IMG/VR virus record: IMGVR_UViG_3300009537_000007
Location: 1 to 64,000 of that record
Reading direction: 5' to 3' (one strand)
From: a virus
Length of the DNA: 64,000 nt
The notes under the pieces are model-generated. The model was not told where the DNA came from. It was given only the letters and a program-made list of their open reading frames with translations, and searched no databases. The position numbers and the translations under genes were made by a program. Within the stretch, counting starts at the first letter, position 1. Each line of letters begins with the position of its first letter. Positions 22,909 through 40,847 of the stretch are shown here, piece by piece.

Positions 22909-23735
22909 AATCCGAACCTCGATTTTGAAAGATCGTAGAAGCTGTCGCATTGGGCCTTGGTCCAGCTAACAGAGGACATTCCCCAGCCGTAAACACGGGC
23001 ACCGTTGGATAGTTTATTGCCGCCTGTGCTGGCCTCAACACCGCCAATGTCAAGCGCGGCAGTAGCGGCGGAAGCGGACGGCGATGTGTAAGTTCCATCA
23101 AACGTGTCCGCCGACGCAACCTGTAGATACGCACCCGTGTCATACATGAACGACCCGCCAGCACCCGTCGCCTCATCGAGCGAAAGAATGAACAATGCGG
23201 GGCTTCCGGTGGTGAAGCTGTCCGAGGATGTGACTGACAGGGCCGCCGTTCCCGCGCCGCCGCCCGTGTTGACCTGAAACTGGATTTTGTCGGTTCCGTT
23301 TTGAAGAATGGATATGCCGATGGAATTGGTGTTCTTGGCGTTGCCGCAAAAATCGTCTTGAGTGGACGCCACAAGCTGCATCCAGACCCAGATCGTTAAA
23401 TCCGCGTTGTTCTTGTGGAAATTATCGACATATGCTGGTTGAGTTTTCTGGTGATTGTAATCCCCGCCGTCATAGGAAAGATAGGTAGTGGACAGAAGAT
23501 TGCCCGCAGTGCCGGTAAACGTGGGATCGTCCGTGGTCGCGGTTCCGTCAACGCCGAACCACCAGTCGTCGGTAGCTGACCCGGATATGTTGGTAATTGT
23601 CTGCCCGGACCCGCCATAAGAAGTGGATGCGCCAATATCCACGACGTTCTCAAGGCCGGAAGTCAGGCCAGCGGATACAATGTTGTCGTAGAAGTTGGCC
23701 TTTATCAAACTGGGTGGAATGAACGGCATCAACAT
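22905..23735 (-). CDS. tail fibre/receptor-binding protein with LamG (concanavalin-like) fold
   Basis: S/T/G-rich beta-type sequence following the fibre gene. The pattern resembles the LamG protein at 54149. Confidence 0.5.
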   Translation of the reverse strand: MLMPFIPPSLIKANFYDNIVSAGLTSGLENVVDIGASTSYGGSGQTITNISGSATDDWWFGVDGTATTDDPTFTGTAGNLLSTTYLSYDGGDYNHQKTQPAYVDNFHKNNADLTIWVWMQLVASTQDDFCGNAKNTNSIGISILQNGTDKIQFQVNTGGGAGTAALSVTSSDSFTTGSPALFILSLDEATGAGGSFMYDTGAYLQVASADTFDGTYTSPSASAATAALDIGGVEASTGGNKLSNGARVYGWGMSSVSWTKAQCDSFYDLSKSRFGL

Positions 23736-24850
23736 TATTGCAGCGCCTTCACATGGAGATGGGAGAAGCCATTGCTTTTCGTAATGAAGAAGAAGAAATC
23801 ATCTCCATCTGTGGTTGAAATCGTGTCTCCGTCCACCAGAGTAAATCCAGATGTGGTGATCGTTCCGGCGCTTGCGTTGTTCGTATATTGAATGATAATG
23901 GTGCAACTGTTCGTCGGCGGAGCCAACGTGTGCGCCCCACCGTTGACGGCGTATTGCATATTGCCGTTAGCTTCATCGGGGGTGAATGTCCCGCTGGATT
24001 TGGTCCCGGCGTTGTAATCCGTGGCCGCAAAACCAACCGTTAGAACATCTGCCGTATCTGCGTAGAGCGTGTCCACATCAACTGCCTTACCACTTGCCCT
24101 TACGTAATTGGTGCAGCGATATGTCCCCGCGCCGTATTCGATAAACTCAGCCTCATCCCCAGCGGCAGTGGTAATGTTAACACCGCCCGGAAGAATCAGG
24201 TTCGTCGCATGATGAGTAAGGGTGAGGGCTCCGTCGAAGTGCAGCTTGATCTGAGTTCCAGCGCCGCCGGTAGTGTTGATCGATGTAATCGTGGTGGTGC
24301 CGGTAACGTCGAAGTAATTGCCGTCCGTTAAGACTGCAAGGGCCGTGGCACTAGCCACATCGGCCCCCTGTGACCACTGTATTTGCGCCCCATTACAATC
24401 CAGATCGCCACCGAGTTGTGGGGTGGTGTCTTCTACTATGTTGGAAAGGGAGTCGGCAATGTAATCAAGTCCTGCGATAACATTGGTGCCGTCGCAGTAG
24501 AGCATGGTCTTCTTGCCCTGCGTCACCGCGATGCCGGACCCGGCGGCGGTCTTAACCGTCAGGGTATAGGCCCCGGAGGTGTTGTTGAAGATGAAGTAAA
24601 CCTTGTCGCTGGTAGGAACGATGACGTTGATGTTGCCTGTAAGTGCCCCGTTATATTCGTGCCAGGCGTTCAGAGCCTCGGCAGAAGTTAAAGTAACATC
24701 AGACGATCCCGCAACACTCTTGGACAGCCGTGCGGCAACAGCATCATCGATATTATCCAGGACGGCGTTGAGCGCGGTGCCCCAGGTATTATTGTTATCG
24801 CCCGTTCCTTGTTTATCTAACGAAAGGGCGTCAGTATATGTGCTTGCCAT
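23735..24850 (-). CDS. tail fibre protein
   Basis: N-terminus ...LSLDKQGTGDNNNTWGTALNAVLDNIDDAV is a typical fibre N-terminal adaptor. G/T/A-rich beta-repeat body. Lies downstream of the giant gene, as T7 gp17 does. Confidence 0.6.
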   Translation of the reverse strand: MASTYTDALSLDKQGTGDNNNTWGTALNAVLDNIDDAVAARLSKSVAGSSDVTLTSAEALNAWHEYNGALTGNINVIVPTSDKVYFIFNNTSGAYTLTVKTAAGSGIAVTQGKKTMLYCDGTNVIAGLDYIADSLSNIVEDTTPQLGGDLDCNGAQIQWSQGADVASATALAVLTDGNYFDVTGTTTITSINTTGGAGTQIKLHFDGALTLTHHATNLILPGGVNITTAAGDEAEFIEYGAGTYRCTNYVRASGKAVDVDTLYADTADVLTVGFAATDYNAGTKSSGTFTPDEANGNMQYAVNGGAHTLAPPTNSCTIIIQYTNNASAGTITTSGFTLVDGDTISTTDGDDFFFFITKSNGFSHLHVKALQ

Positions 24851-27800
24851 TAGTCAGCCTCAAATTGGGTTTTCAGTTGTGCCATCGCCTTAGCCAGGCG
24901 CATTTTCACTTTGCGAACCTCGTCTTTCCTCTCACGCTTCTCCGTGCCGGTCATACCTTTGTGACTGCTTATCGCACGCATCATCCTGTTTAATTTTCGC
25001 ATCTGAATGTCTGCGTTGTTCAGGGATTTCCGCATGGCCAGCTTGTTCCTGTTCTCCATCAGGAGTTCCTGGGCATACTTGACTTCACCATCAGCGATTA
25101 GTTTTTGGATGGTGTCGTGGAGGCTCTGCGCTTCTTCGCGCATCTCATAGAACTGATGAATGGCCTTGGAAGACTTGGGCACTTCCGGTCCCACAAACCT
25201 ACGCAGGGCCACGATATCGGACGGCATCATGGCTTCCTTGCTTGGATAGTCGCCGACTCCCATCATCATCCAGTCTGCCAGATTCAGGCCATATGCTCCT
25301 ATGTTGGCGAAATAGCCCTCAATCACGGTTTCGATATACTTGGGTGAAACATTAGTCATGCGACCGATGTGCCTGGCCGCAATACTGGTGTTGTCATCAT
25401 ATTGTTCTGCGGGCTGTAGCCGCTCTTCCCATGGCTGGAGAATCTTGCGCTCCCGGAACTCGTCCTTGTTCGAGTAAATGCGAACAATTGGAACCGCTGC
25501 CTGCGGCACGATACTGAACCTGAACATCTCGCTCATGATCCACCTCATGCGCTGGAGAAATTCCTTACCCTCCCCCTTCTTGAGAAGATCAAGCGTCCGT
25601 TCCGGGATGCTGCCGAACAGGGCACCGACCTCGAACGGCTTGGGCAGCTTAAGCGGCTCCTTCAGGCCGAGGGCGTCACTGATGCCGTAGAACCACCAGT
25701 AGGTGTCGCGCTGGTAATCCGTCAAATCGTTGAACCGCTCATCGTCTTCGTTACTGAGCCAGAGCGCGGTCGTGGCAGCCATGACCAAACCAGCCTTTAT
25801 CATGAAGGCGCGGTTGAGCTTCGCGGTTTGCTCCTGACCTTCCCGCGCGCCACGGTAGGTTCGATACAAACCCTGAAGGCCAGCATTGAAAAACGGCACC
25901 GTATCAGCAAGGAAACGGATCAGGAAATAGTCTCCACGCATGCCGAAATCAGTGCTGATTTCGCGGGCCTGGTAAGCTGCCTCCATGAGCCCGACACCAT
26001 CCTTGCGGAGCTTCTTGAAAGCCCCGACGCGAGTGGAGTATTCGAGTGTGGATTCAATTCGTTGGAGCGCTCCGACATAATCGGACGGATTTTCGAGAAT
26101 GCTCGCTTTTTCACCACGGATGAATTTCTTCACGACACTCTTCAGGCTTGGCCTGTCAGCCTCGAACAGGGCCGACATTCCGGCTCCGGCCTGCAGAAAT
26201 TCATGCCAGTATTCATCCCCGCCAACCCAGTTGCCGTCCTTGTCGATACGGGGAAGTTGAGACTTGATGCCTTTGATACTGTCGATAAGCGGCTTGAATC
26301 CCTTGTGAGAAATCACCGAGGCGTGCATGGTGTCGCGCACGAAGTTGGCCGCCTGGAAGCTGGGGTCCAGCCCGACCATCATGGTGAGCAGGTTCTTGGC
26401 TTTCTTGAGCGGCTTTATTAGTGCATGCGTGTCCTTGCGATGCAGCATGGTAAACGACCGGAACAACATCGGATCGTCAACTTCGTAGAACTCAACCTTG
26501 CCATCCTCGACCACCGACACGATGTTATCGCCTTTCGGGGCATTACCGAGTGACCACAGGACGCGCAGGGCACCGGGATTGATGTCGTCTTCCGGTGTCA
26601 CCTCCAACCCCTGCTCATAGAGATCATCCACCATCTGCTTGTTCGTTACCAGGGCCCTTTTGGCCTTCCTGCCGATCCTGCTCATGAACAGATCGCCGGA
26701 TTTTCTGTTGAGATCAACGGCGCGGCGCATGACTTCGTTTTTTATGCTTGCTTCGATCAGACGATGTATGTTGTGTTCGTAATTGATTAGCGGATGTTCG
26801 ATCTTGCTCTTGCCGCCGGTAAGCCGGTAAAAGTTTGGATGTTGCCCGGAAAAACCCAGTCTGGACCTGGGGCTCTTGACACCCTTGCCGTTTTCTGTGA
26901 TGCGGAAGAAAGGCACATAGTTCTTGTGCATCTCATCGAAAAACGCCCGAGTATCAGCATCCAGCAGGCCGGACTCCTGTGCAAAGTCGAGTATCTTGCC
27001 GTTATAGGTCTGCAGGTCGTCGAATAGTCCGGCGAAGTCGGGGTGCTTGCGGTCCAGGGCGTCGATGGCAGCCGCAGTATCGTGGTTTGCGAACAGGGCT
27101 TCCCGGCCAACCTTTACCAAGTTTCCATTTACGTCATAAACTTTCTTGCCGCCATCCATGGCTTTAAGCTCTTCGGCTCGGCGAGAGGCCAGATAAACCT
27201 CGAACTCTTCGGCTCGCTCACCGCCGATTTCGTCCATGATTCCCATGGGAGCCTTTACACCGGCATCGATGGTGGTGGTCCCCTCCTTCCAGACCGGAGC
27301 CCCCAGGAACATTGCTTCAAAAATCAGGTCGTTGATGCCTCGGGTCAACCGGGCCAGCTTATAGGCGCTGCGGGAGTCCTCATAAAGCTGCTGGACTCCA
27401 TCGACCGCCAGCCGGGATTTCTCCTCCATAACCTTTATGAAGTGGAGATCGTCTGCTACCGACTGCTTGGCGCGGTCCACGAACTTGTCGGCCAGGACCT
27501 CGGAAACCCTCTCTTTCCATGGCTGCTTCTTGTCGGCACCGATATTATTGAGGATGCCCTTGACGATTCCTGCCTCTTTGGCAGTCAGGGAGTATTGCTC
27601 GCTGCCAGGCATTCCGGGTAGTGCCGTGCCCTTGCGCCTGCCGACTTCGCCGCTCTCGACTCGCCCTAATACGTCCTCAATGGTCTGAAAGCCAAGGCCA
27701 CGCAACATATTGCCCGTCCTCTGCAGGAAGTCGGTGAGCCGTTTGAACATGCGCTTGAAGCCTGGCGGGAAATTCTCGCCGCGCCGGTAAGACGAAAAGG

Positions 27801-30800
27801 CGTCGGCAATGGCTTCTTCGTTTCGTTTTTCTTCATTGAGATGACCGTATTTGGCATCGATGTCGTATTTGTGCCGCCACGAACTCTCCGCTTTCTTTCG
27901 CAGCAGATTCCATTCCTTGCGGGTAAACATGCCCATGCTTCGCAGAGCATGAATGGCTTCGTGGCGCAGGGTGGCAGCCGGATTGTCGTAGTTTAGGGCA
28001 ACTGTAATCAGTTGTTCTATATCCCTATACGAACCCCTGACGGTGCGTTCCTTACCGTCAACGACACGGAGCATTCTATCCACCACCCCGAGGCGTGCGT
28101 TAGGTGCAATCTGTTCGAGGATGGACTGAAGCCCCTTAACGACCCTGGCGCGTTCCTTATCTTGTCCAGGCGAAAAAATACCCGCCTCCTGGGCGGGCTT
28201 GTCCGAGAGTTTCATGCTCTCTTCGCCGGTCGGTTCCTCCGCTTCACCATCTTGCGGAGATTCCTCTTTCTGCCGTTCGGATTTAGCCAGTTTCTCCGCA
28301 AGGTTTCTTAGCGTTTCGTTGCCGTTATGGTGGGCGAAAAATGAAACACCGTGTTCGGTCTGGATCGCCTCAATCAATTTGGCAAATTCCGTTCTCGGAA
28401 AGCGAAGATACCAGATATCCTGTTCTTCTCCTCCGGTCGGCGGCCTGCCCTTCTGACGCATCATATTGCCGTGCAGGTCCTTCTCCGGGTCGCCCTCATA
28501 CCAGGTAGATTGTTCGGACTTACCAACGATATCACGGATGACTTGGGATTTTCTGATCGCCCCACGATTTTCGCCACCACGCTTGGAAATCAGTCCGAGA
28601 TAATAAGAGTGTTCCCCGCTCCACACGTTCTTTTTGAGTTTGTTGTTCCAAAAAGGATCACGCGGGTTTCTGACGGTAATAAACATCTCACCGACATTAT
28701 CGCCGATGAACCCGATGCTGCCGCCCTCGGACATATACTTCTCAAGATTTGTCGCCCAATCGAGCTTGATCGGAGCCTTCAAGACATCATCGGCGGGCGG
28801 CAAGAGAATTCCGCGCTCGACATCCCCGTTTTCATTCGTGTAACGAACGATCATCGGGCGGCGCTCTTCCGGGAGCCTCGGATCAACCTTACCGAACAGT
28901 TCCTCGTATTTCTTAAACGACCGCAGCGCGTTCCCCCTGAGAATCCAGCGCGTCTCCTTGTCTTTCTTGTCACCGACCAGCATATTGGCACCCTCCTTAA
29001 GAGAGGGCGGAGTTCCATCAGACCCCACAACCCGGCCAAGATGGAAATGCGGCCCCCACCTGCTGGTGTTGCCTGAACTATCGGCCATATCCTTGGGACG
29101 CATTTTAACCCATACGCGCTGCCCGCGACTCATGGCGACGGTTATTTGCAGGCTCTCGTTAATACCGGAAGCGGCACTGAATGGATCGCGGTCTGTTTCA
29201 AGCCCTTTGTCCTTGATGTCGATAATCACGCCCTTGGCGATGAGCCCACCACTCCCGCCTTGGGAATTATCTTTAATATCGACAACGGAACCGACCCCGA
29301 GGAACTTAACCGCCCTTAGCGCCTTGCTGATCTTCTCCATGCGCTCATTAATGATACGCTCCGCACCACGTTTCCGGGTGAGCATTCTTTCATAAGCCTC
29401 TTTTTCTTCCTTCAGCTTGGCCTTGGCTTCCCTTAAAACCTCCTTGCTGTTTTTTATCGTCTCTTCCTGTTGTTCGATATTCTCGTCCAGCTCGCCAACC
29501 CTCTGAAAGGCCGCAGCCTTACCTGCCTCATCTGCATTCTTGGCTTCTTCGCGGGCTGTCTTTTTCTGCTCCTTCAGGTCAACCATCCTGGTGTTAGCCT
29601 CATCAACGGCGCTGTCAGCAACATTGACTGCCGTCTCGGATTCTTCGACAACCCTGGCCTGCGGCTCCGCTTCCTTTTCGACTTCCGCGATGGTATCGGT
29701 GTATTCACGGTTTTCGTTATCGATGCGGCGCTGAATATCGGCCAGCAATTTTTCATTATAGCGGGCCGCGCCCTCCTCAGTCTCCCTGAGAGACTTGTCG
29801 TTAACCTCAAGTGGTGCGGGCCCCTTGATTTCAGTGTTGGCCCAGATTTTTTCCAAAACCTGGATTGGCCTGAACGGTTGGGTAATAGGATTCATGCTGA
29901 CCTGTTCAGCAATAACCCCCTTCTGGAATTCACTGTCGGTTCCGGTTTCTTCCGCCAGTCCCATAGACTGAATCACCGATGTCTCAAGATCGTAAAGCGG
30001 CACATCCCCGATGGAAATACCGGCAGCCTCCAGCGCCTCGATGCGATTGGTATAGTTCTCGATTATCGATGTGTAGATTTCATCTTGAGACGGAAGTTCG
30101 ATCTGCCCGCCGTCACGGTCAACAACATACGAACTGTTGAACACCGGCAGCATGGAAAGTCTGTTGGTGATCTTGCCGATAGCGGCCTCTACCGATCCGC
30201 TTTGCATGGATCGCAACACCTTCTCCATAGAAAGCCCGACATATTTAAGCGCATCACGCATTCTGCTCTCTGACGCGAAGGCTTCAACAATCGCATCCAC
30301 ACCATATTCATTGATGAAGTCAACTTCATCCTGTGCGAGAGCAGACCCGCTGGCCCCTGTGGTCTGGGCCGACATCTTGGACACCTTGCGCTGGAGGGCG
30401 GCGTTATACCGTTTCTCCTGCGGGACATTGGATGTCAGGACGGAATAACGAGGCATTTTAACCATGCCGGTGCGGAAGATGCGCCCGAGTATCTGGACAT
30501 GATTAAAGATGTCCAATTCCGGCTGCCCAACGATCATCCACCTGCCGGACTGGTCGTTGAATTCCGCTGCCGCATGCAGGCTGATGCCTTCAGCCGCAGA
30601 GCGGTTGATAATCAGGGCGTGATACTCACTGTCGTTATTGAAGCTGTTCATGGCCTGTTGGTCAGATAGCTTGGAGTTGTCCCTGGCCTCCAGCTTCATG
30701 GTTTCCATGTTGACCTGGATACTGCGCCCCGTGATCTCTCCCATCTTAATGCCGCGCTTGGCGAGTTCGTGAACAATGTAGTCAATGGGCGAAAGCGGGA

Positions 30801-33800
30801 GGTTGAGCCCGTCTATCTGATTGTAGATTTCCTGACCTTCGTCGTATATCTGGCGCATTCCGCCGTCTTCGTATTCACGCTCCCTGAACACCCCGAGGTC
30901 TTCAAGGTTCAGATCAAGGAACTTTTCGCTGTCTGGGATTGAATCATCGTCAAACTGTTCTTTGGTAAGACTGGCGTTTTTGAGTTGAAAATTGAACGAG
31001 CGCTTTTGGTAACGGCGAAACAGGTCTGCAAAGGACATTTGGGATACGTCATCGCCGACTACAATCCCGGCGTTCTCGAAAAACGCCTGCTGGGTAAACG
31101 AAACAGACACGATGGGTTTATGGTTGTTGCCGCCGGAATCCTTTTCGTTCCGCGCCTTAACCGCTTCCTCGATAATCGAATCCGCCTTGATTGCGAGCAT
31201 GGCGTATTGCTGCATAATCGGAAGGGCCCGATACGACAGCTTTGCCTTTTCATGTTCCCAGGTAGCCGTCCCGTCGTTGCTCAACCAGCCAAGTTTCGTG
31301 GCTTCCTTGGTGGCGACCGCTTGAATCATTTTTACTAATTGATCGCCCATCGATATGGCGGCGGTGGACCTAATGGCACCGAAAATCTGTTCGGCATTTT
31401 CGGCATCGACCTCGTATTCGACAGACGGGATAAGAACCGGCTCACCCTCGTAAAGGAAGGATTGTTCTCGCCTGACCATTCCCAAGTCTTTTGCCAGGTC
31501 CTCGGTAACAATCTGAGATAGTTTATCGCCACCGCGCACCATAAGATCATAAAGCTCTTGTGGACCGTTAACGGCGTGTCTCACGCTGGTCGTTGCCAGC
31601 ATGGTCATGGTTTCGGGATTCTTGGAGAAGGTGGCTGACGAGAGGAGCGCCCCGTTGGCTGCCTTGATTTTCGCACGCAACCAAAGCGCGGTGGAGGGTA
31701 TCTTCCCCTCTTTCGGGTCACTGAGGGATTCCAAGCTGCCGCCAGCCTTGTGACTTTCGTCCATTGCGAAATACATTTTGGACGCATTCATGTCGAAAAG
31801 CGGGCGGCGTCGGTTGGTGGTCGGCCCCTTCCCCTTCTGGACGGGGGGCAGCCCACGCTCCTTGAGATGCGCGTTTATTCTGTCTTTTGTTTTTTTATCG
31901 GCGACCGGCTTTAGCTGACCATACGATGTGAAAATAGACGAGTATTTACGCCCGGTCGAACGCCAGCGGTTGTTATCGCCCTCCTTGGTTCCAGGAACCT
32001 CTTCGACGATCTCGGGCATCTCGAATTCTTCGTGATACTGGATGGCACTGGCATACCAATCCTCATACGGCATAACCTTACCGTCGTAATAAACCATCTC
32101 GGGCTTGACCAGGAACTCGTCACCGAGTTTTTTCTGATCTGTCCCGGGACGCGGCGGAAGCATGACACCCTTGCCGACAACAACGCGCTCGTCGGTGTCC
32201 GAGTCCTCTTCCGTTTCTTCCTCGCTTTCCCGCGCCGTGAAATCATCTGTCGGAAGGGCCGTAAAATCATGCCAGCCGATCCCGTAGATATCCCTGTGCA
32301 TATCACTGTAAAGGCCGTATTTTGCGGTAATGAACACCGGCACGATGTCGTTCACGAAAGCGTAACGAAGCATACCGGCCACGGCGCGCCCCTTGCCGAG
32401 CCCTGTCTGGTCCCCAATAACGAAAGTATTGCCCTGTTTGTGGCTCCATATCGCAAGGGCGATAGCGTCCACCTGGGTTCCCATCAAGCGGCTTTTGCCG
32501 CTATCTCCCTTGTAGAGTTCGTCGTAAGTAAAATTCAGTTCGTCTGCCACGAACTGATCGATGGCCCGACCGTGCGGCAGGTCCTTATACTTGTTGTTCT
32601 GTTTTAGCTCGTCGGCCAGCCTGGAAAGACCCTCCCTGAGGGCCTTTTCGACTGCAGCCGGAACCCTGGACGGTGGCGATTCCTGTTCGCTGAGGGAGAC
32701 ATAGGCTTTTTGCATGGCGTGAGCCTGCTCCTTCCTGGCAAGCTCTTTCGCCTTGTTTGCCATTTCCTCCCGATGGCGCTTCGACTCCTTTTCCTCTTCC
32801 GTCTCGGCTTCTTCTTCGGACTCCTCCATGGCCAGCATGGATGGGTCGTTTCTGACATCGGCCTGGAAAAGCATAAACGCCTCACCGGCGCGTTTAATTT
32901 TCCATCCGGGCGCATCCTGTCTCTTAAAGGAAGCCGCAACGGCAAGGGCAAACTCTTTACGGGTTGGTTTTGTGTCGCCGGGCAGATCGGCTGCCCAACT
33001 ATGGAACTTGTTTATGAGGAAGTTTTTAAAGCCACGCTGATTATACATTTCATCGGCGTCAACGTGGCCATTTTCACCTGGGGGGATTTCTAGGGGAGGA
33101 CGCCTGTCCAGGGGGTCGCGCGGTAAATTCTCTCCGCTGATAAACCCGCCCCAATCATCTATGCCAGTTCCAGGTCCCGGTGATACGCCTGTTCCTGGAG
33201 TATCACCCCCAGGTTCACCACCGACATCTCCTCGGCCTCCCTCTGTTCCGCCTTCGTCAGTCGTTCCACGGGGGCCTCCTTCTTGCGGCGGAAGACCTCC
33301 CTCAGGAACTCCTCCACCTCCGGGAGACTCAGTAATGTCGCTGCCGCCGTCCACAGTTGATCCGCCAACCCCGCCTCCATCGGGCCGTCCAGGTCCGGGC
33401 CGTCCAGGAGGAACTCCCGCGCCTCGTTCACCACCTCCCACGCCTTCTCCGGGCTGTCCCCGAAATCCCGATCCATCTTGAGGTAGATTCTCGTCTTCAG
33501 GCTGTTCAGGTAACGCTTCTCCGACATCCGTTCCGTGCCCTCCAGGGCCCTCACCGCCAGGAGGGGCCTCAGTTCCCCCACGCCCTTCGGAGCTACCATC
33601 CAGTGGTTTTTCATTGATAATTTCCTCTACGATATCTGTCGGGTCGTCCCGGAACCTCCAGGACTTGCTGGGACCGTCCCAGGCACCGCCGGAAGCCTTG
33701 AGTTCCTTGCGGATACTGAAAGTGGAGTTTGATTTCTTGTCTCCACGGACGGCATAATCCATACCAGACAGGAAGCTGCGGTCCCCGCCATACGGGTCCA

Positions 33801-36303
33801 GAACAACAATTATATCATGTTCGGGGAAACGAGCAATTACATTAGGGCCGCCGTCCGGCTGCTGTTCGGCTGGTGCCCCTTCCTGGGGCGCTGATTCCTG
33901 CGATTCTTCTGGTGTTTCCGGGGCCTGTGGAGCTTCGGGCTTTTTTCTATCCTCGAACAGGGACGGATAATCTTCCCGCGCCCCCTCATAAACCGGCTCA
34001 CCGCGCTTCAGGGCCTCCTTGACGGCGATTCGGTGCGGATAATCCAGGTTGAAGACATCGAAAAACTTGTGGTGCCCGGGCCAAATGCGAACCCTGTCCT
34101 TGCCCCATTCCTCTTCATAATAGTCACCATCTTCGTCAGCGCCCCTGAGAAGCGGCCCGGCACTCCCGGGCATGTGTTCGTATGAAGACTTGGCACCACG
34201 AACGGGCTGATGGCTCTCCCGCTTCATGTCCAGGATGTGTTCGATTTCATGGCGAAGAGTTACAATCGCGTCCTCATCCTTGAGGAACGTGGACAACCTC
34301 ACCTCACGCTTCATCGGATGATACCATCCACCCGTGATACCGACTCCCTTGTAATCGACCTGAACCGGGTCTGGGACCTCCCTGATGGTCAGCCTGGGAA
34401 GAACGTCACGGCCAGCTTCGGTGTTGTATTTCCTCCGGTAGTAATCATAAATGCCCTGCAGGTCCTTGGTTCCGGCTTTTTTGCTTATACGCTCCGCAGC
34501 GGGCTTCATGAATTTGTCACGGAACTCCTTGCCAGACATGGAACGGGCGGCAGCCCGAGTCATCTGCGCTGTCGGTGTGTCCTGCTCATCAGCGCCGAAG
34601 ATTTTACCGATCTCATCATCGGTAAGGTCCTCTTCATCCTCGGCAAACCCACCAGTCGGCTCCTCCTTTGGCTTCTCGTCAGCGGGTTCCTTTGCGGGCG
34701 GCTCTTCAACCGGCTCGGGCTCCTTGGGCTCTTGAGCAATCCCGGGGCTGACAGGAGGCGGCGCAGTGGGCTGTGGCTCCTCCACGGGAGGCTCTTCCAC
34801 AGGCTTTGGTTCTTCGGGAGACGCTACCGGGGGCTGTCCCTCACCCGTTCCTTCATCCTGCGGTGCTATAACAGGCGGGACAGGCCCCTCGGTAGGCGGT
34901 GCAGGCTCAACAGGAGCCTGCGGTTCCCCAGGTTGTTCGACAGTGCCACCCTCATCAACCGGTTCTTCAACTGCGGGCACTTCCTGAGGCGGCCCTTCCT
35001 GAGGTTGTTCCTCTTGCTGTTGCCGGGCATCATACGCTTCCTGAAGGTCGGGGTAGTCCCACAGGACCTCTCCAGGAATGATCTGACCGTTCTCGATACC
35101 CTGAATAACCGCCTGACGATGACGGGCCATGACATCTTCGATCTCGGCCCAATTGAAGCCAAGCTCGCGGGCGGTCCTCACATAGGTCATTACAGGGCGC
35201 TGGGCGGAATACACGAAACTGCCAGCACCTTCTTTTTTGTCTTTTTCCTGCGGCTTCTCGTCAGGTGGTTTTCCCTCCGGCTGCTTAGGTTTTCCAAAGG
35301 CAGTATCATAAACCTTGGAGCCGACAGCACCGGCACCACCCATAACGCCGGTCAGCAGCGCCACTTGCGGGAGAACGTCCTTCGCAGCCTCAAGCGGCCC
35401 CTGCGACTTGTCTCGCATGCCGATATCGGCCTCGACACCGGTCTGTCCCATCTGGGTAACGACTTCGGTGCCAAGCTCGGTCCCGAATATGCCAGCAGCC
35501 TTGGCCGTTGCCCTGGCGATCATGTTTTTCATGATCGGCGATTTCATAATCACATCAACAGGAGCCCTGATAATCTTCAATGCGCCAGCGTTGCCAATGG
35601 CTTCAGGAACAGCCTCCCACAACCCGTATTCCCTGATTGCGTTTTCGTGGGTCTTAACGATATCGGACCATTCTTTTTTGGTGATCTCACGGCCACGATT
35701 TTCCTTGGATTGCTCGTTCAGGAACCCGTGCAGCTCATTGGTGAACTGGTCCTTAGCCATACGGAAGGCGACTGCACCAGAAGCCCCCATGCCCAGTGTC
35801 CACGAAGCGGCTTGCGCTCCAGGAACAGGGGCAAGCCCAAGCGGCACACCAACGCCGAGGCCAGCCAGCATACTGGTCGCCGAGAACCCAAGATTCTGTG
35901 GAAGCTCCCGGATATCCTTGTAGCTGATGTCGCCAATCGGGGTGGAGATGAACAGCTTATTCTCGTCCTCAACCCCGCCCTCTTTCATAAAAGCGTCAGC
36001 CGAAGCCTGCGCCTCATCCACCCACCGCTTGTAGTGATTCTCGTCAAGGACGTTCCTGCCAGCACGCGCGGAAGCGGCCATGGACCCTTTGATCTGGGCC
36101 GGGGCCTCCATGATCGCCTCGCCGATCAGTCCGAGGCCGCCGAAGAAGTCCGTCTCGGGCCCCTTTAGCTCTCCGTCGTCACCGGTATATGGGGCCAGAA
36201 GATCGTCTGCCGAGATATCGGCAGGAAGCAACTCCCCGTCCGTCATGCCGCCGTCAGGCGATTCCCATGCGGTCGGGTCGGGCCCGGGCTTTACGAGTGG
36301 CAC
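24850..36303 (-). CDS. giant polyvalent virion protein (3817 aa) in the T7 gp16 position
   Basis: Uninterrupted 11.45-kb ORF. HEIEH (aa 685-689), K-x-x-x-x-G-G-A-W-D...K-S-W motif (aa 866-885), helicase motif I GDQTGLGKGR (aa 1297), DESH (aa 1515), AAEGISLH and QILGRIFRTG (aa 1937), HEAIH (aa 2781-2785). Confidence 0.8.
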   Translation of the reverse strand: MPLVKPGPDPTAWESPDGGMTDGELLPADISADDLLAPYTGDDGELKGPETDFFGGLGLIGEAIMEAPAQIKGSMAASARAGRNVLDENHYKRWVDEAQASADAFMKEGGVEDENKLFISTPIGDISYKDIRELPQNLGFSATSMLAGLGVGVPLGLAPVPGAQAASWTLGMGASGAVAFRMAKDQFTNELHGFLNEQSKENRGREITKKEWSDIVKTHENAIREYGLWEAVPEAIGNAGALKIIRAPVDVIMKSPIMKNMIARATAKAAGIFGTELGTEVVTQMGQTGVEADIGMRDKSQGPLEAAKDVLPQVALLTGVMGGAGAVGSKVYDTAFGKPKQPEGKPPDEKPQEKDKKEGAGSFVYSAQRPVMTYVRTARELGFNWAEIEDVMARHRQAVIQGIENGQIIPGEVLWDYPDLQEAYDARQQQEEQPQEGPPQEVPAVEEPVDEGGTVEQPGEPQAPVEPAPPTEGPVPPVIAPQDEGTGEGQPPVASPEEPKPVEEPPVEEPQPTAPPPVSPGIAQEPKEPEPVEEPPAKEPADEKPKEEPTGGFAEDEEDLTDDEIGKIFGADEQDTPTAQMTRAAARSMSGKEFRDKFMKPAAERISKKAGTKDLQGIYDYYRRKYNTEAGRDVLPRLTIREVPDPVQVDYKGVGITGGWYHPMKREVRLSTFLKDEDAIVTLRHEIEHILDMKRESHQPVRGAKSSYEHMPGSAGPLLRGADEDGDYYEEEWGKDRVRIWPGHHKFFDVFNLDYPHRIAVKEALKRGEPVYEGAREDYPSLFEDRKKPEAPQAPETPEESQESAPQEGAPAEQQPDGGPNVIARFPEHDIIVVLDPYGGDRSFLSGMDYAVRGDKKSNSTFSIRKELKASGGAWDGPSKSWRFRDDPTDIVEEIINEKPLDGSSEGRGGTEAPPGGEGPGGHGTDVGEALPEQPEDENLPQDGSGFRGQPGEGVGGGERGAGVPPGRPGPGRPDGGGVGGSTVDGGSDITESPGGGGVPEGGLPPQEGGPRGTTDEGGTEGGRGDVGGEPGGDTPGTGVSPGPGTGIDDWGGFISGENLPRDPLDRRPPLEIPPGENGHVDADEMYNQRGFKNFLINKFHSWAADLPGDTKPTRKEFALAVAASFKRQDAPGWKIKRAGEAFMLFQADVRNDPSMLAMEESEEEAETEEEKESKRHREEMANKAKELARKEQAHAMQKAYVSLSEQESPPSRVPAAVEKALREGLSRLADELKQNNKYKDLPHGRAIDQFVADELNFTYDELYKGDSGKSRLMGTQVDAIALAIWSHKQGNTFVIGDQTGLGKGRAVAGMLRYAFVNDIVPVFITAKYGLYSDMHRDIYGIGWHDFTALPTDDFTARESEEETEEDSDTDERVVVGKGVMLPPRPGTDQKKLGDEFLVKPEMVYYDGKVMPYEDWYASAIQYHEEFEMPEIVEEVPGTKEGDNNRWRSTGRKYSSIFTSYGQLKPVADKKTKDRINAHLKERGLPPVQKGKGPTTNRRRPLFDMNASKMYFAMDESHKAGGSLESLSDPKEGKIPSTALWLRAKIKAANGALLSSATFSKNPETMTMLATTSVRHAVNGPQELYDLMVRGGDKLSQIVTEDLAKDLGMVRREQSFLYEGEPVLIPSVEYEVDAENAEQIFGAIRSTAAISMGDQLVKMIQAVATKEATKLGWLSNDGTATWEHEKAKLSYRALPIMQQYAMLAIKADSIIEEAVKARNEKDSGGNNHKPIVSVSFTQQAFFENAGIVVGDDVSQMSFADLFRRYQKRSFNFQLKNASLTKEQFDDDSIPDSEKFLDLNLEDLGVFREREYEDGGMRQIYDEGQEIYNQIDGLNLPLSPIDYIVHELAKRGIKMGEITGRSIQVNMETMKLEARDNSKLSDQQAMNSFNNDSEYHALIINRSAAEGISLHAAAEFNDQSGRWMIVGQPELDIFNHVQILGRIFRTGMVKMPRYSVLTSNVPQEKRYNAALQRKVSKMSAQTTGASGSALAQDEVDFINEYGVDAIVEAFASESRMRDALKYVGLSMEKVLRSMQSGSVEAAIGKITNRLSMLPVFNSSYVVDRDGGQIELPSQDEIYTSIIENYTNRIEALEAAGISIGDVPLYDLETSVIQSMGLAEETGTDSEFQKGVIAEQVSMNPITQPFRPIQVLEKIWANTEIKGPAPLEVNDKSLRETEEGAARYNEKLLADIQRRIDNENREYTDTIAEVEKEAEPQARVVEESETAVNVADSAVDEANTRMVDLKEQKKTAREEAKNADEAGKAAAFQRVGELDENIEQQEETIKNSKEVLREAKAKLKEEKEAYERMLTRKRGAERIINERMEKISKALRAVKFLGVGSVVDIKDNSQGGSGGLIAKGVIIDIKDKGLETDRDPFSAASGINESLQITVAMSRGQRVWVKMRPKDMADSSGNTSRWGPHFHLGRVVGSDGTPPSLKEGANMLVGDKKDKETRWILRGNALRSFKKYEELFGKVDPRLPEERRPMIVRYTNENGDVERGILLPPADDVLKAPIKLDWATNLEKYMSEGGSIGFIGDNVGEMFITVRNPRDPFWNNKLKKNVWSGEHSYYLGLISKRGGENRGAIRKSQVIRDIVGKSEQSTWYEGDPEKDLHGNMMRQKGRPPTGGEEQDIWYLRFPRTEFAKLIEAIQTEHGVSFFAHHNGNETLRNLAEKLAKSERQKEESPQDGEAEEPTGEESMKLSDKPAQEAGIFSPGQDKERARVVKGLQSILEQIAPNARLGVVDRMLRVVDGKERTVRGSYRDIEQLITVALNYDNPAATLRHEAIHALRSMGMFTRKEWNLLRKKAESSWRHKYDIDAKYGHLNEEKRNEEAIADAFSSYRRGENFPPGFKRMFKRLTDFLQRTGNMLRGLGFQTIEDVLGRVESGEVGRRKGTALPGMPGSEQYSLTAKEAGIVKGILNNIGADKKQPWKERVSEVLADKFVDRAKQSVADDLHFIKVMEEKSRLAVDGVQQLYEDSRSAYKLARLTRGINDLIFEAMFLGAPVWKEGTTTIDAGVKAPMGIMDEIGGERAEEFEVYLASRRAEELKAMDGGKKVYDVNGNLVKVGREALFANHDTAAAIDALDRKHPDFAGLFDDLQTYNGKILDFAQESGLLDADTRAFFDEMHKNYVPFFRITENGKGVKSPRSRLGFSGQHPNFYRLTGGKSKIEHPLINYEHNIHRLIEASIKNEVMRRAVDLNRKSGDLFMSRIGRKAKRALVTNKQMVDDLYEQGLEVTPEDDINPGALRVLWSLGNAPKGDNIVSVVEDGKVEFYEVDDPMLFRSFTMLHRKDTHALIKPLKKAKNLLTMMVGLDPSFQAANFVRDTMHASVISHKGFKPLIDSIKGIKSQLPRIDKDGNWVGGDEYWHEFLQAGAGMSALFEADRPSLKSVVKKFIRGEKASILENPSDYVGALQRIESTLEYSTRVGAFKKLRKDGVGLMEAAYQAREISTDFGMRGDYFLIRFLADTVPFFNAGLQGLYRTYRGAREGQEQTAKLNRAFMIKAGLVMAATTALWLSNEDDERFNDLTDYQRDTYWWFYGISDALGLKEPLKLPKPFEVGALFGSIPERTLDLLKKGEGKEFLQRMRWIMSEMFRFSIVPQAAVPIVRIYSNKDEFRERKILQPWEERLQPAEQYDDNTSIAARHIGRMTNVSPKYIETVIEGYFANIGAYGLNLADWMMMGVGDYPSKEAMMPSDIVALRRFVGPEVPKSSKAIHQFYEMREEAQSLHDTIQKLIADGEVKYAQELLMENRNKLAMRKSLNNADIQMRKLNRMMRAISSHKGMTGTEKRERKDEVRKVKMRLAKAMAQLKTQFEAD

Positions 36304-36305
36304 TC

Positions 36306-37682
36306 TTATTTACTCCACGACTTGATCTGGTCGATCCGCCTCTGGGCGGTGGCCTTGTCCTTTATTTTCCCACTCCTTACATCAGCCAAAACCTTGTTGA
36401 TTTCCCGTGTCTGGTCGGCGGAAAGGGTCTTGCCACCGCTCTTTTTCTCGGAAGACTTGGAAACGTCGAACATCCTGTCGAACTCGGCCTTCTTGGCCTT
36501 CATGACCTTGGGATCGTTAAGGGCCTGAATCCCTTCCGGCGACTCCTTCCACTCGTTGAAGGCGTCGTTGGCGGCTTCGGCACGTTTGAGATTAAGCGTC
36601 TCGCCGGATGTCGCTGCCTGGGCGCGCCGCCAATACGCCGTATTGCGGTCCTTCGCCTTAGCAAGTTCTTCAGTGCTTTTGATCTTCCTGTCGCCCTGCG
36701 CCAGGGTCTTGCCGAACTTCTCCTTGTCCCACGCGGCGGCGACTTCCCTGAGTTTCTTCTTGTCCGTATAATTAAGGGTGTCAAGACCGGCTTCACCAAG
36801 ATTACCGAGGGTCGCGCCGAACATATTCTGTCCAGGCTGGACCGGCTTGTTCCCCGCCTTCATCAGTGAAAGACCGAAACGCAGCAGGTTGTCGTAATGC
36901 TCGTCCTTGGTGAACATATCGGTGCCGAACAAACCACCACCATCGGCAGGAGCGGCAGGAGCGGTTGGAACGCCCGGCCTATATCCGGCCTCCTGATCCA
37001 TATTCATCTGTTCCATGCCTGGGGGCATGGCTACCTGTGGTGCGGCTTGCGGGGCGGCAACCTGTGGAGGCACGACAGGAGGCGGCCCATCCATACCGGC
37101 ACTGAATCCGGGCTGTGGCATCGGCTGTGAAACCTGCGCCGCACTTTGGTTGGGGCCGCCGGGCATCATCTCGGCAAACATCTGTTTTGCCTCTGGGCCG
37201 ATCCTGCCAATGTAATCGGCAATACTGTCGCCGACCCCCTCGACGCCCTCACGAAGACCGCTTCCAATTCCCTGATACCAGGGCCCATTATCCGCGACGG
37301 CTGTTGGCTGGTTTAGCCCCGTAGTAGCTGGCGGCTGAGAAGGCCATCCCATGGGTAGAGCGTCCAGAACAGTCGGGTTTTGAGGATCGACCCAGCCTGC
37401 AGGAAGGTTCGGCCCCTTCGTTGCCTGCTGGAAATTCTCCCACGCCTTGGCGGTTTTTTCATTTTCACCGGGGGAGCCGACAGCATCCTGCGCCCGCTGC
37501 GCCACGATCCGCGCCGCCTCTGGATTTTTAAGCGCGATTTCCTCCAACTCGGCGGTGGACAGGTCCTCCAGCCTGGGCGGAATAGCCGCTGCCGGGGGAC
37601 GGACATCACGGCCAGGAACCGGATAACCGCCAGGTCTTCCGCCCTGCACGAAAGGAAGAAGAGGATATGGTGTGTTTGGCAT
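36306..37682 (-). CDS. internal virion/ejection protein candidate (458 aa, P/A/Q-rich)
   Basis: Position equivalent to T7 gp13-15. Low-complexity proline-rich N-half. Confidence 0.4.
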   Translation of the reverse strand: MPNTPYPLLPFVQGGRPGGYPVPGRDVRPPAAAIPPRLEDLSTAELEEIALKNPEAARIVAQRAQDAVGSPGENEKTAKAWENFQQATKGPNLPAGWVDPQNPTVLDALPMGWPSQPPATTGLNQPTAVADNGPWYQGIGSGLREGVEGVGDSIADYIGRIGPEAKQMFAEMMPGGPNQSAAQVSQPMPQPGFSAGMDGPPPVVPPQVAAPQAAPQVAMPPGMEQMNMDQEAGYRPGVPTAPAAPADGGGLFGTDMFTKDEHYDNLLRFGLSLMKAGNKPVQPGQNMFGATLGNLGEAGLDTLNYTDKKKLREVAAAWDKEKFGKTLAQGDRKIKSTEELAKAKDRNTAYWRRAQAATSGETLNLKRAEAANDAFNEWKESPEGIQALNDPKVMKAKKAEFDRMFDVSKSSEKKSGGKTLSADQTREINKVLADVRSGKIKDKATAQRRIDQIKSWSK

Positions 37683-37692
37683 GATTTATCCC

Positions 37693-38577
37693 CTACCGAA
37701 ACTTCAGGCCCATACCGCCGAGGCCACCGGCAAGAGCGCCGATGCCGCCAAGCGTCTGGGCGAAGGTGTTGGATTGCTGGACAGGACCAGATGAGGTCGT
37801 CTGTTGATTCGTGGTGTATGGCACACCGCTGATAATGGCAGACAACCAGTTAAGCTGTTCCTGTGGATAATAGAACTGCTTCATGAAGTCGTCATAACGC
37901 AGGGTGAGATTCTGCTGTTCCTGAGATTGCTGGGAAGAGCCAATGTCAGCCAGAGAAGCCACATCGCCGAGATTGAGTGACTGAATGATCGGCGCTAGTT
38001 GGGCGTCCATGGTCGAGCCCCTGAGCGTTCTGTCTTTTTGCTCATTGGCCTGTTCCATTGCCTTGTTAAACCCACCAAGTTGAAGCGTGGCAATTGTTTC
38101 GGCCATCACGCGATTCTTGGATTCCTGGGCAGCGTTATCTACCACATCGCGGCGGTCCTCGTTCAGATAAGACCCACGCTTGGCCCAGGAGCCGTGACGG
38201 GCGTTCGTGTCCTTGTCGAATTGCCTGTTCATACGCTCGGTCACTGAGTTGATGACGCTATCGGTATATGGATTCATGTAAGCGTCGATATCTGACTGGC
38301 CGATGGGCGCGACACCCTGACCGGCCCCCGTGAAAGCCCTCTCGAAAGCTGGTTGCCATGAACCCTGGCTATCACGGACGAGATCGAAGGCGCTGGTCTG
38401 ATCGGGATTGAAATCAGCAACGCGCTGGTCGCCGTAATTTGGATAATTCCGCTCGGAAAGGGGCGAGGCCGTTTTGTATGTATCTTCGCCAGCCGCACTC
38501 ATCCAGGCCGGAATCTCATTTACGGTCTTATTCACGACCGTTTGGTTTTTGGGCTGACTGCTACCACCGAAGCACAT
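37693..38577 (-). CDS. structural protein candidate (294 aa)
   Basis: Intact ORF in the tail/internal-protein block; no family recognised. Confidence 0.4.
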   Translation of the reverse strand: MCFGGSSQPKNQTVVNKTVNEIPAWMSAAGEDTYKTASPLSERNYPNYGDQRVADFNPDQTSAFDLVRDSQGSWQPAFERAFTGAGQGVAPIGQSDIDAYMNPYTDSVINSVTERMNRQFDKDTNARHGSWAKRGSYLNEDRRDVVDNAAQESKNRVMAETIATLQLGGFNKAMEQANEQKDRTLRGSTMDAQLAPIIQSLNLGDVASLADIGSSQQSQEQQNLTLRYDDFMKQFYYPQEQLNWLSAIISGVPYTTNQQTTSSGPVQQSNTFAQTLGGIGALAGGLGGMGLKFR

Positions 38578-38578
38578 T

Positions 38579-39016
38579 TCAGAAATCCTCTATGAACATT
38601 TCACCGACCGGCGTAAATAAGCGCCGGAATAGCTTGTTTTTTTTCTCCACCCCCCCTGGCGAGAAAACACCGACAGCCAGAGGCATGCCGACCGTCTTCG
38701 CAAAATCCTTAACCATCTTGAGCAATACAAGGGCGTGCCTGGATCGCCTGTATCCCTTCTTCACGAAGGTCCAGGAATCCTGCAGATGCCAATCTTCCGA
38801 ATACCAAAACTGGCTTGGACCAATACCGACTGAGGCGATAATGTCGTCACCGTCACGGGCAACGAAAATTGCCCCCTCCGTCATGAACCTTTCGATCTCG
38901 TCCACGACCTTTATGGGAGCCAGCCTGGCTATACCGACCTCCTCATACATGAGCATGAGCAAGTCATAAATCTTCTTTTCCTCACCCCTGACGGCAACCC
39001 CGTAAGTTACGGTCAC
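38579..39016 (-). CDS. GNAT-like fold protein (145 aa, tentative)
   Basis: IFVARDGDDIIASVGI ... KKGYRRSRHALVLLKMVKDFAKTVG resembles GNAT beta4/motif A. Confidence 0.4.
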   Translation of the reverse strand: MTVTYGVAVRGEEKKIYDLLMLMYEEVGIARLAPIKVVDEIERFMTEGAIFVARDGDDIIASVGIGPSQFWYSEDWHLQDSWTFVKKGYRRSRHALVLLKMVKDFAKTVGMPLAVGVFSPGGVEKKNKLFRRLFTPVGEMFIEDF

Positions 39017-40410: not shown

Positions 40411-40847
40411 TAGTCAGCTATGTATTGAGTTCCGTTGTAAACGATCAACTTTCTTCCATAGTCGGTTGAAATCGTCACGCTTGCCCCGCCATTGATGTTA
40501 ACCCCGCCTGGAGAGGCAATGGTGATATTGTTGCCGGATGCGCCACCGGACGAGTCCTGCACATAAAACCGCTTTCCTGATTTCAGTGAACCCACGGCGG
40601 GAAGCGTTACCGTGACAACACCGGCCCGGTTGACATCGATTACATCATCTTTCCTGAGGATGGTGTATGTCGCTGTCGTAACGCTGGTGAGCTTCGTGGT
40701 GCGCCCGCCGCTGCTGATAAGCTCACTAACCGCCTCCAGGTCCCCCTGAAGACTGGAAAAGAACTGTTCAAGCATGACAACAAGATTGGAAGCCCACCGT
40801 ATATCGTAATAATCAAGCGGTTGCGGAAGACCCCCTGGCCGCCTCAT
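40410..40847 (-). CDS. hypothetical structural protein (145 aa)
   Basis: Coupled ORF with a beta-rich C-terminal half. Confidence 0.45.
   Translation of the reverse strand: MRRPGGLPQPLDYYDIRWASNLVVMLEQFFSSLQGDLEAVSELISSGGRTTKLTSVTTATYTILRKDDVIDVNRAGVVTVTLPAVGSLKSGKRFYVQDSSGGASGNNITIASPGGVNINGGASVTISTDYGRKLIVYNGTQYIAD

Follow-up and report, generated by a model that had tools for sequence, protein, structure and literature searches.

A helicase-bearing LPD38 polyvalent protein of 3,817 residues as the probable gp16-type ejection protein of a podophage-like virus

Positions 1 to 64,000 of the IMG/VR virus record IMGVR_UViG_3300009537_000007 (64,000 nucleotides, hereafter the window, by which we mean the whole stretch of DNA that was analyzed) contain an open reading frame (ORF) for a protein of 3,817 residues, here called the giant. 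The question raised by this locus is what a single chain that combines a helicase, two distinct HExxH modules, an LPD38 domain, and at least two unassigned domains does for the virus that encodes it. A preliminary description, made from the sequence alone, regarded it as a polyvalent virion protein encoded at the position where T7-like phages have the ejected protein gp16. Our analysis makes it very likely that the giant is an encapsidated and ejected internal virion protein of the LPD38 polyvalent class, functioning as the gp16-type member of a podophage ejection set. It is a new representative of a known class, both as an LPD38 polyvalent protein and as the carrier of a Strawberry-notch helicase, and not a new kind of system. 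The novelty is modest and lies in a helicase without its methylase, two HExxH families outside the Pfam models, and the explicit connection of LPD38 giants with ejection proteins of the gp16 type.

Residues are numbered from a GTG start codon, which has GGAG 9 nt upstream and lies 2 nt past the stop codon of the preceding ORF. An exhaustive protein search retrieved the identical sequence from a public collection (P0016), where it is called from Met20 at 3,798 residues; both starts are possible. Pfam finds three matches in the whole protein (LPD38, Helicase_C_4, and AAA_34), and a scan of tiles, the check that the preliminary description had proposed, agrees, with AAA_34 and Helicase_C_4 above their cut-offs and LPD38 as an addition. 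The whole giant has no match in NCBIfam, and five pieces of it have none in sequence searches of the PDB.

The family membership of the giant is carried by its C-terminus. Only residues ~2940–3810 are shared with other phage giants, at 22–30% identity, and in full-length homologues the shared part runs to the C-terminus (tblastn and BLAST). This module matches 83–236 phage records in tblastn and can be aligned with at least 15 relatives. Among the homologues are gp25 of Escherichia phage PTXU04 (2,197 residues), gp20 of Vibrio phage D274 (3,162 residues), and phiARM81mr p69 (3,191 residues, annotated as a virion structural protein), as well as proteins of CF418P1, FGH, BA3, VvAW1 (‘DarB-like antirestriction’), Pelagibacter phage HTVC034P (gp44, 1,230 residues), and Pag-Yong1 (‘large polyvalent protein’); remote matches extend to ~180 Shiga toxin (Stx)-converting phages. 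In the giant ORFs that podophages encode among their structural genes, the module always forms the C-terminus, and minimal metagenomic relatives of 1,000–1,400 residues have little beyond it. LPD38 is a hallmark of phage-type polyvalent proteins, and judged by its Pfam match (Table 1) and the location of its gene in the virion module the giant belongs to this class, in line with the polyvalent-protein concept of the preliminary description. Also as described there, the C-terminal region is helical: an AlphaFold2 model of residues 2700–3817, built from 19 sequences (predicted local distance difference test score, pLDDT, 68; predicted template modeling score, pTM, 0.63), consists mostly of helices. 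Compared with BFVD, the model of the module gives 72 matches at E ≤ 1e-3 with TM scores up to 0.77, and the N-terminal cargos of these proteins include RelA/SpoT, lytic transglycosylase (LT_GEWL), and type I methylase domains. Its most hydrophobic conserved helix, which follows a PFFNAxxQGLxR motif just ahead of the Pfam LPD38 region, either spans a membrane or is buried in the core.

Two of the homologues have been studied by experiment. Phage phi24B gp47, which contains LPD5, LPD1, LPD38, and a metallopeptidase, is abundant in virions and invisible in cryo-electron microscopy, and has been proposed by its authors to be an encapsidated ejection protein (bioRxiv 10.64898/2026.04.10.717836). 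Like the giant, this and the other Stx-phage ‘LPD5/LPD38 domain-containing’ proteins are podophage giants encoded in the virion module, with a C-terminal LPD38 and a metallopeptidase-type module, putative in the giant; the C-terminal region from the window detects them remotely and over part of the module (tblastn E ~1e-5, 22% identity). They differ in that LPD5, LPD1, and the MuF-C metallopeptidase of gp47 are not found in the giant by Pfam, and in that no helicase has been reported for gp47. PTXU04 gp25, from a Xuquatrovirus, has LPD38 as its sole Pfam domain and is fitness-essential in a CRISPRi-ART screen. Its module is 27% identical to that of the giant over residues 2931–3808 (Foldseek E 9e-45), it too lacks cysteine, and its gene is likewise the final large gene of the structural module; it is shorter, has no helicase or HExxH module by Pfam, and has unrelated neighbors. 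By extension from these homologues, the giant would be packaged and ejected, and its C-terminal module would be essential.

Independent, composition-based support for the giant and the genes upstream of it as an ejection set comes from cysteine. The absence of this residue is a published signature of ejected, periplasm-crossing proteins (Lokareddy et al. 2024, PMC11445570), and we saw it also in T7 gp15/gp16, P22 gp7/gp20/gp16, and N4 gp50/gp51/gp52. The giant has none in 3,817 residues and the five-ORF block upstream has one in 1,507, while the other ORFs in the window average 1%, a frequency at which the chance of finding none in 3,817 residues is ~3e-17. Most homologues of the giant are free of cysteine as well; a few true relatives, proteins of ~1,100–1,600 residues, have one, and one ORF from IMG/VR has three. 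The signature serves here as a cheap marker of an ejection gene set.

The order of the genes, all on the (-) strand, fits the same picture: small and large terminase, SU10-type portal, scaffold, and major capsid protein are followed by an HNH endonuclease, a GT2 glycosyltransferase, and an S-adenosylmethionine (SAM)-methyltransferase-like gene, then by two ‘virion structural proteins’, the five-ORF block, the giant, and a tail-fiber-like gene. Two IMG/VR contigs (L011 and L012) are syntenic with the window: genes for proteins of 224, 586, 145, 145 (GNAT), 294, and 458 residues match at 28–56% identity and are followed by a giant gene. Four of the five ORFs in the block have syntenic homologues there (28–52% identity), and the 465-residue ORF has no match. 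The products of the block are probably co-ejected with the giant, and several of these upstream proteins have Gly-zipper hydrophobic stretches, as does the N-terminus of the giant itself. Within the block, the 465-residue ORF (39013-40410, -) contains long hydrophobic stretches of the Gly-zipper type and, after them, a low-complexity tail of Gly, Ser, and Asp, and the 294-residue member of the ‘DNA ejection protein’ family (37693-38577, -) terminates in GGIGALAGGLGGMG; both have the look of ejection proteins that act on membranes. One of the two 145-residue ORFs (38579-39016, -) resembles GNAT acetyltransferases in weak Pfam and PHROG matches, is found at the same place in L011/L012 (42% identity), and may be an injected acetyltransferase effector.

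How far, then, does the resemblance to T7 gp16 go? As in T7 (gp14, gp15, gp16), the genes run from internal proteins to the tail fiber, and the giant, like gp16, is free of cysteine. In addition, the N-terminus of the giant of L012 (L012:7328-7810, IMGVR_UViG_3300032524_000094) is a lytic transglycosylase, and its best match in the PDB is the homologous N-terminal domain of T7 gp16 (7eyb, E 1.3e-7). The giant in the window has no transglycosylase, is three times larger than gp16, and carries enzymes that gp16 lacks; residues 1–1300 and 2700–3817 have no PDB sequence match, the C-terminal model has no PDB fold match, and no similarity to the remainder of gp16 is detected. The gp16-like position given in the preliminary description thus holds by cysteine content, neighboring genes, the L012 transglycosylase, and phi24B gp47; the implied T7-like phage does not, since the portal is of the SU10 type, portal and capsid protein resemble those of Vibrio podophages, and integrase and ParB genes are present. 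Nor is the position in itself remarkable, as had been thought, because such placement is the norm for the LPD38 class. In size and layout the giant resembles the virion RNA polymerases N4 gp50 and DEV gp71, which are ejected cysteine-free proteins of ~3,400–3,800 residues preceded by smaller cysteine-free ejection genes, and which likewise have an N-terminal membrane region, a central nucleoside triphosphate (NTP)-driven nucleic-acid enzyme, a putative zinc-binding motif, and a large helical C-terminal domain. The zinc-binding motif is reported for DEV gp71 (PMC11445570), and its N4 counterpart is a metallopeptidase domain according to Iyer et al. (PMC5512222). These phages belong to another lineage, their enzyme is an RNA polymerase and not a superfamily 2 (SF2) translocase, and the C-terminal domains have no detectable homology (hhalign 0.4%).

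The central enzyme of the giant is a helicase of the Strawberry-notch (Sbno) type. AAA_34 matches at residues 1271–1364 (30.0 bits in the whole giant and 34.4 bits in a tile, cut-off 27) and Helicase_C_4 at residues 1840–2026 (60.6 bits, cut-off 30.5), so that the assignment to Sbno-type helicases in the preliminary description was correct. The AAA_34 match is partial (model positions 34–134 of 306, approximately the first third) because an insert of ~210 residues, acidic and longer than in relatives, separates motifs I and II. The catalytic motifs are intact: GDQTGLGKGR with the Walker A lysine (at residue 1297, which makes K1304 correct), DESH (1515), SSATFSK, NRSAAEGISLH (AAEGISLH at 1903), and QILGRIFRTG with the arginine of motif VI (1937). 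These and all other motif positions in the preliminary description proved exact. In an alignment with four relatives (P0017, P0018, L012, and L017), motifs I, II, III, and V match, and motif VI has a single substitution, GRIFRTG in place of GRINRTG. The giant thus shares with Sbno/SnoC-type SWI2/SNF2 ATPases both Pfam families above their cut-offs and motifs I–VI, and differs in the partial AAA_34 match and in being a putative virion protein instead of a protein of chromatin or conjugative elements. Helicases of this type are among the rarer components of polyvalent proteins, found ‘in a few instances’ (Iyer et al. 2017, PMC5512222).

What sets the giant apart from its full-length relatives is that this helicase has no methylase beside it. 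P0018 (3,722 residues) and P0017 (4,094 residues), both without cysteine, consist of the HEIEH module, the Sbno helicase, the HEAIH module, and the C-terminal module in that order, and a pattern scan of IMG/VR added 12 further loci, including L012 (at least 3,956 residues; 39% identical to the giant over residues 2264–3759), L017 (5,025 residues), and L021 (at least 5,183 residues). An N6-adenine methylase lies upstream of the helicase in all five helicase-bearing relatives: in P0017 and P0018 it is identified by Pfam after the HEIEH module and ahead of the helicase, and in L012, L017, and L021 it is marked by an NPPF motif at the same place. In the giant, neither whole nor tiled Pfam scans find a methylase, no [DNS]PP[YFW] motif occurs anywhere, and the scans likewise give no match to LPD36, which lies N-terminal to the methylase. 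With the domains of the relatives as queries, tblastn detects no methylase remnant in any frame of the window, and no separate methylase or transglycosylase is found elsewhere in it. The absence of a recognizable methyltransferase, which had been pointed out before, is therefore real and distinguishes the giant from these five relatives. The place of the methylase in P0018 and L012 is held by the GGAWD mini-domain alone, and the Gly/Pro tract, which follows the methylase in these two proteins, follows the mini-domain in the giant. Also absent are the transglycosylase and the InPase domain, the latter found in P0017 by Pfam and, as an InPase-like region alongside the N6-adenine methylase, in L012. 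The comparison with L012 indicates that the giant has lost its transglycosylase, InPase-like region, and methylase; with these domains missing, it represents a stripped-down version of a sub-family that as a standard mounts a DarB-like methylase–helicase dyad on an ejection protein. Domain order varies further in L017 and L021, where the helicase comes before the HEIEH module. These larger cysteine-free polyvalent ORFs (L017:686-15760 and L021:2-15550, on IMG/VR contigs of 56 and 60 kb) have methylase, Sbno helicase, and HEIEH module reordered and an extra HELIH site, and their C-termini have no BLAST match to the LPD38 module.

The comparison with DarB of phage P1 follows from this. Both proteins are giants with an SF2 (SWI2/SNF2-clade) helicase, delivered from the head in the case of DarB (Iyer et al. 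2017, PMC5512222). Because a methylase is not found, the giant is not a DarB-type dyad; it also lacks LPD36 by Pfam, whereas DarB belongs to a myophage and has no LPD38.

The two HExxH sites, HEIEH at residue 685 and HEAIH at residue 2781, are the only ones in the giant (chance expectation ~0.09), and both lie in modules that are conserved in relatives. The invariant elements of the HEIEH module are LRHEIEH, D, GHH (~58 residues after HEIEH), and F..DY. A search of 1.84 billion representative proteins with residues 596–895 found 17 relatives at E ≤ 0.001, discounting the self-match, one of which (P0020) is a repeat artefact. The module occurs in giants, fused straight to the C-terminal module in proteins of ~1,500 residues, and as free-standing proteins of ~180–236 residues, and a scan of the genome collection gave no confirmed relatives. 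Pfam gives nothing above cut-off (DUF6782, SprT-like, and M43 are sub-threshold), and a profile search of the PDB gives no match. The AlphaFold2 model of the module (pLDDT 77, pTM 0.75) has helices and a three-stranded sheet followed by the HExxH helix, and the top 15 Foldseek matches in the PDB are all of the zincin type, with IrrE/PprI and ImmA-like regulators ahead of selecase and other minigluzincins; adamalysins and anthrax lethal factor come lower in the list. On the basis of this model, the HEIEH module is probably a minimal zincin metallopeptidase of a rare family. The HEAIH module has homologues in P0014, P0015, P0017, and P0018, matches phrog_10691, and has as invariants HEAIH, W, W, EE.IA, and GE, the EE lying ~45 residues past HExxH in a gluzincin-like spacing that makes a zincin plausible. 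Given these differing fold and profile results, a zincin is therefore likely for HEIEH and only plausible for HEAIH. That the two are duplicates is not supported by profile–profile comparison (hhalign probability 9%); they are two separate families, neither of which is matched by any Pfam model. Both sites had been placed exactly in the preliminary description, and the zincin fold expected there receives weak structural support for HEIEH and none for HEAIH.

These observations can be combined in a model in which the C-terminal ~870 residues, kept by every member, would anchor the protein in the capsid core and then become part of an envelope-spanning conduit. By analogy with T7 gp14–16 and DEV gp71–73, the C-terminal module and the N-terminal zipper would remain in the envelope-spanning apparatus and the cargo would reach the cytoplasm. 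The exchangeable cargo would sit between these ends, joined by disordered Pro/Glu and Gly/Pro linkers, and be delivered with the DNA. The HExxH modules may cleave the polyprotein at the linkers, polyprotein processing being the role assigned to metallopeptidases of polyvalent proteins by Iyer et al. 2017 (PMC5512222), or may cut targets in the envelope or host. In the relatives, the helicase would partner the methylase as a DarB-type dyad that protects the entering DNA in cis from restriction. With the methylase missing, the translocase of the giant would therefore have to work on the incoming genome by itself; it could, for instance, clear or outrun DNA-binding defenses of the host, or assist DNA entry.

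Several points weigh against this model. The C-terminal module has no detectable homology to T7 gp16 or to the C-terminus of N4 gp50 (hhalign probability 0.4%), and its model matches no solved structure in the PDB; its conduit role is therefore drawn from analogy. It has just one weakly hydrophobic conserved helix. Support for packaging of the giant is indirect, coming from the cysteine signature and from proteomics of the homologue class, and the essentiality of PTXU04 gp25 is that of a whole gene. The Foldseek scores of the HEIEH model are weak (best E 0.047, TM ≤ 0.43), and the HEAIH module has no fold evidence, with no Pfam or PDB match and an AlphaFold2 model of low confidence in this region.

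Some of the same evidence could be read to mean that the giant is pure accessory cargo, that is, a dispensable DarB-like anti-defense effector whose C-terminal module is a capsid-targeting or packaging adaptor without any role in an ejection channel. The archetype, P1 DarB, is packaged in the head, non-essential, and antirestrictive (Iyer et al. 2017), the cargo varies greatly on a constant C-terminal module as it would on a delivery tag, and the module has no clear transmembrane segments. We nevertheless find this reading unlikely, as gp25 of PTXU04, recognizable only by LPD38, is essential on a laboratory host, the minimal members of 1,000–1,400 residues scarcely exceed the module, and 870 residues are very large for a targeting signal. 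Moreover, the lytic transglycosylase at the N-termini of L012 and of BFVD relatives indicates envelope penetration over defense evasion. A role in the envelope might conversely be taken further, with the two ends holding the giant at the inner-membrane end of the conduit and the Sbno translocase reeling phage DNA into the cytoplasm. The giant would then be a counterpart of the RNA-polymerase ‘genome ejection motor’ proposed for N4/DEV, and the methylase of the relatives would ride along, modifying the DNA as it passes. Such a motor would account for the parallel with DEV gp71/N4 gp50 in layout (N-terminal membrane region, NTP-driven motor, large helical C-terminal domain), for the giant gene ending a small–medium–giant set of cysteine-free genes as in N4/DEV, and for a coiled coil and long linkers that suit a tethered enzyme. 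The helicase motifs are intact despite the loss of the methylase, so the enzyme would have a methylase-independent use. This reading draws on an analogy of layout, and many LPD38 proteins have no recognizable helicase, including the essential PTXU04 gp25, in which Pfam finds only LPD38, and HTVC034P gp44, which has only 1,230 residues. A helicase motor is therefore not the general essential function of the family, and the different domain order in L017/L021 is what would be expected of shuffled cargo; we regard the motor as quite improbable for the giant as well.

That the giant is not packaged at all, and that it acts instead as an enzyme in the cytoplasm late in infection, or as an outer part of the tail or fibers, encoded within the structural operon, we consider highly improbable. 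The structural module is interrupted also by non-structural genes (SAM-methyltransferase-like, GT2, HNH), and location by itself is therefore no proof of packaging. These interrupting genes are, however, rich in cysteine (2–3%), whereas the giant and the upstream block are virtually free of it, and proteins of the homologue class are found in virions but do not appear in their external density. In addition, no beta-helix or fiber-like fold is predicted. Encapsidation and ejection as part of the podophage ejection set thus remain the preferred reading. The three interrupting genes themselves (43282-46042, -, and 47471-48211, -) are seemingly non-structural; besides the GT2 glycosyltransferase and the HNH endonuclease they encode a 545-residue protein whose N-terminal class I SAM-methyltransferase domain (Methyltransf_11) is by Pfam not of the N6-adenine DNA type.

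The significance of the giant lies mainly in what it shows of its class. Many podophages encode giant LPD38 proteins, among them the ~180 Stx-converting phages and, in the sea, abundant phages of Pelagibacter and Vibrio; the usual annotations of these proteins are ‘hypothetical’, ‘DNA methylase’, and in some cases ‘portal’. The present case gives a clean split between a constant ~870-residue C-terminal ejection/packaging module and swappable cargo, links the class to T7 gp16 through the transglycosylase of a relative, and has the giant and its putatively co-ejected neighbors marked by the published cysteine-suppression signature. As a natural variant without a methylase, it separates the two halves of a DarB-type dyad. 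Should the helicase by itself still be of importance to infection, it would have a role of its own in DNA entry or defense evasion, and if the giant were a motor after all, the variant would show that translocation and not methylation is under selection.

Table 1. Features of the giant and its flanking genes in the window
Feature	Residues of the giant	Window coordinates	Strand	Basis
Giant protein gene		24850..36303	-	3,817 codons plus stop, one open frame, zero Cys
Gly/Ala-rich, moderately hydrophobic ‘glycine-zipper’ region	120-345	35269..35946	-	Composition and motif density
Pro/Glu-rich linker	425-580	34564..35031	-	Composition
HEIEH module	596-795	33919..34518	-	Alignment, AlphaFold2, Foldseek
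GGAWD...KSW mini-domain (~70 residues)	823-890	33634..33837	-	Motif; sub-threshold DUF5710
Gly/Pro low-complexity tract	890-1045	33169..33636	-	Composition
Strawberry-notch-type SF2 (SWI2/SNF2-clade) ATPase/translocase	1270-2030	30214..32496	-	Pfam and motifs
E/K-rich helical segment, probable coiled coil	2190-2335	29299..29736	-	Heptad contrast, composition
Domain common to giant and L012 only	2340-2700	28204..29286	-	Inside the 39%-identical stretch, residues 2264-3759
HEAIH module	2710-2895	27619..28176	-	Homologues, phrog_10691; directly ahead of C-terminal module
Conserved C-terminal module (~870 residues)	2940-3810	24874..27486	-	tblastn, BLAST boundaries, AlphaFold2, BFVD
Most hydrophobic conserved helix	3499-3517	25753..25809	-	Family-averaged hydropathy over alignment
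Pfam LPD38 match	3521-3690	25234..25743	-	PF18857, E 1.9e-35, 123.1 bits, cut-off 27
Five-ORF block upstream (145, 465, 145, 294, 458 residues)		36306..40847	-	1 Cys in 1,507 residues; PHROG ‘DNA ejection protein’, GNAT-like ORF, Gly-zipper proteins
Tail-fiber-like gene downstream (371 residues)		23735..24850	-	phrog_31104, phrog_12796, phrog_38625

Between the domains, the low-complexity tracts seen in the preliminary description are borne out by composition, and the coiled coil by its heptad periodicity. Residues 101–400 contain 10–13% Gly and 12% Ala, and [GA]xxx[GA]xxx[GA] motifs occur seven times in the 226 residues from 120 to 345, compared with ~1.5 expected from the rest of the giant; the zipper region would be membrane-active. 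Similar Gly/Ala-type regions are found at the N-termini of P0017, P0018, and L012, a likeness of kind, with no homology seen at the sequence level, and Pro-rich linkers occupy the equivalent place in the same three proteins. Pro and Glu make up 18–21% and 18–19% of residues 401–600, and Gly and Pro 25–35% and 13–14% of residues 901–1100. Residues 2200–2330 are nearly without Pro and Gly and exceed 300 of 300 shuffles in heptad periodicity. Residues 2030–2190 have no Pfam or PDB match, and residues 2340–2700 have none in Pfam, PHROG, or the PDB. At residues 380–425 (35029-35166, -) the short motif A.IQGIENGQIIPGEVLWDYPDL echoes the conserved tail of the HEIEH module, ALxxGxxVPxEVLxDYPxL, with no HExxH core nearby; it could have been left behind by a second module, or be a motif that recurs for docking or cleavage.

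The GGAWD mini-domain (GGAWD at residue 872, KSW at 880) had been taken for a module of the kind appended to plasmid primases and topoisomerases, an assignment that is not confirmed here. Its sole objective support is a sub-threshold match to DUF5710, a small module on TraC-type primases/topoisomerases (12.1 bits, cut-off 26.5, E 0.17, half of the model covered), and tblastn against 72,556 plasmids yields no significant relatives; there may be a resemblance in motif. Two candidate relatives were discarded: P0020 has 13 Calx-beta-like repeats, which inflated its score, and the ExoX-like_C motif of D274 was rejected on inspection as the same mini-module. Judged by the searches described here, the giant is not a homologue of T7 gp16, and it cannot be shown to belong to DUF5710 or to any curated zincin family.

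The rest of the window indicates what kind of element encodes the giant. A ParB-like protein (10294-11151, +) and a tyrosine integrase (14264-15238, +) are encoded on the opposite strand, which makes a temperate phage or a plasmid-prophage the probable nature of this podophage-like element; a primase-helicase is also present in the window. A 509-residue protein (20231-21760, -) matches phrog_1745 ‘DNA transfer protein’ (E 2e-149), and has an N-terminal IS1/IS1595-type zinc-binding domain and 10 cysteines. Vibrio podophages, among them 431E45.1, have the nearest portal (37% identity) and capsid protein (51% identity). In a megablast search the structural module matches no deposited phage at the nucleotide level, and the phage has no close sequenced relative. 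Comparison of the neighboring genes with PTXU04, D274, and 431E45.1 yields only matches to portal and capsid protein, and only in 431E45.1, whose 706-residue gene product at the position equivalent to the giant is free of cysteine and has no detectable homology to it. The two Vibrio phages are related podophages with the same upstream gene run, which is followed in 431E45.1 (L010:20220-22340) by this 706-residue cysteine-free protein and in D274 (L002:5038-14526) by the 3,162-residue LPD38 protein. Neither of these proteins is detectably similar to the other, which suggests that the gp16-type ejection protein has been replaced wholesale between these phages.

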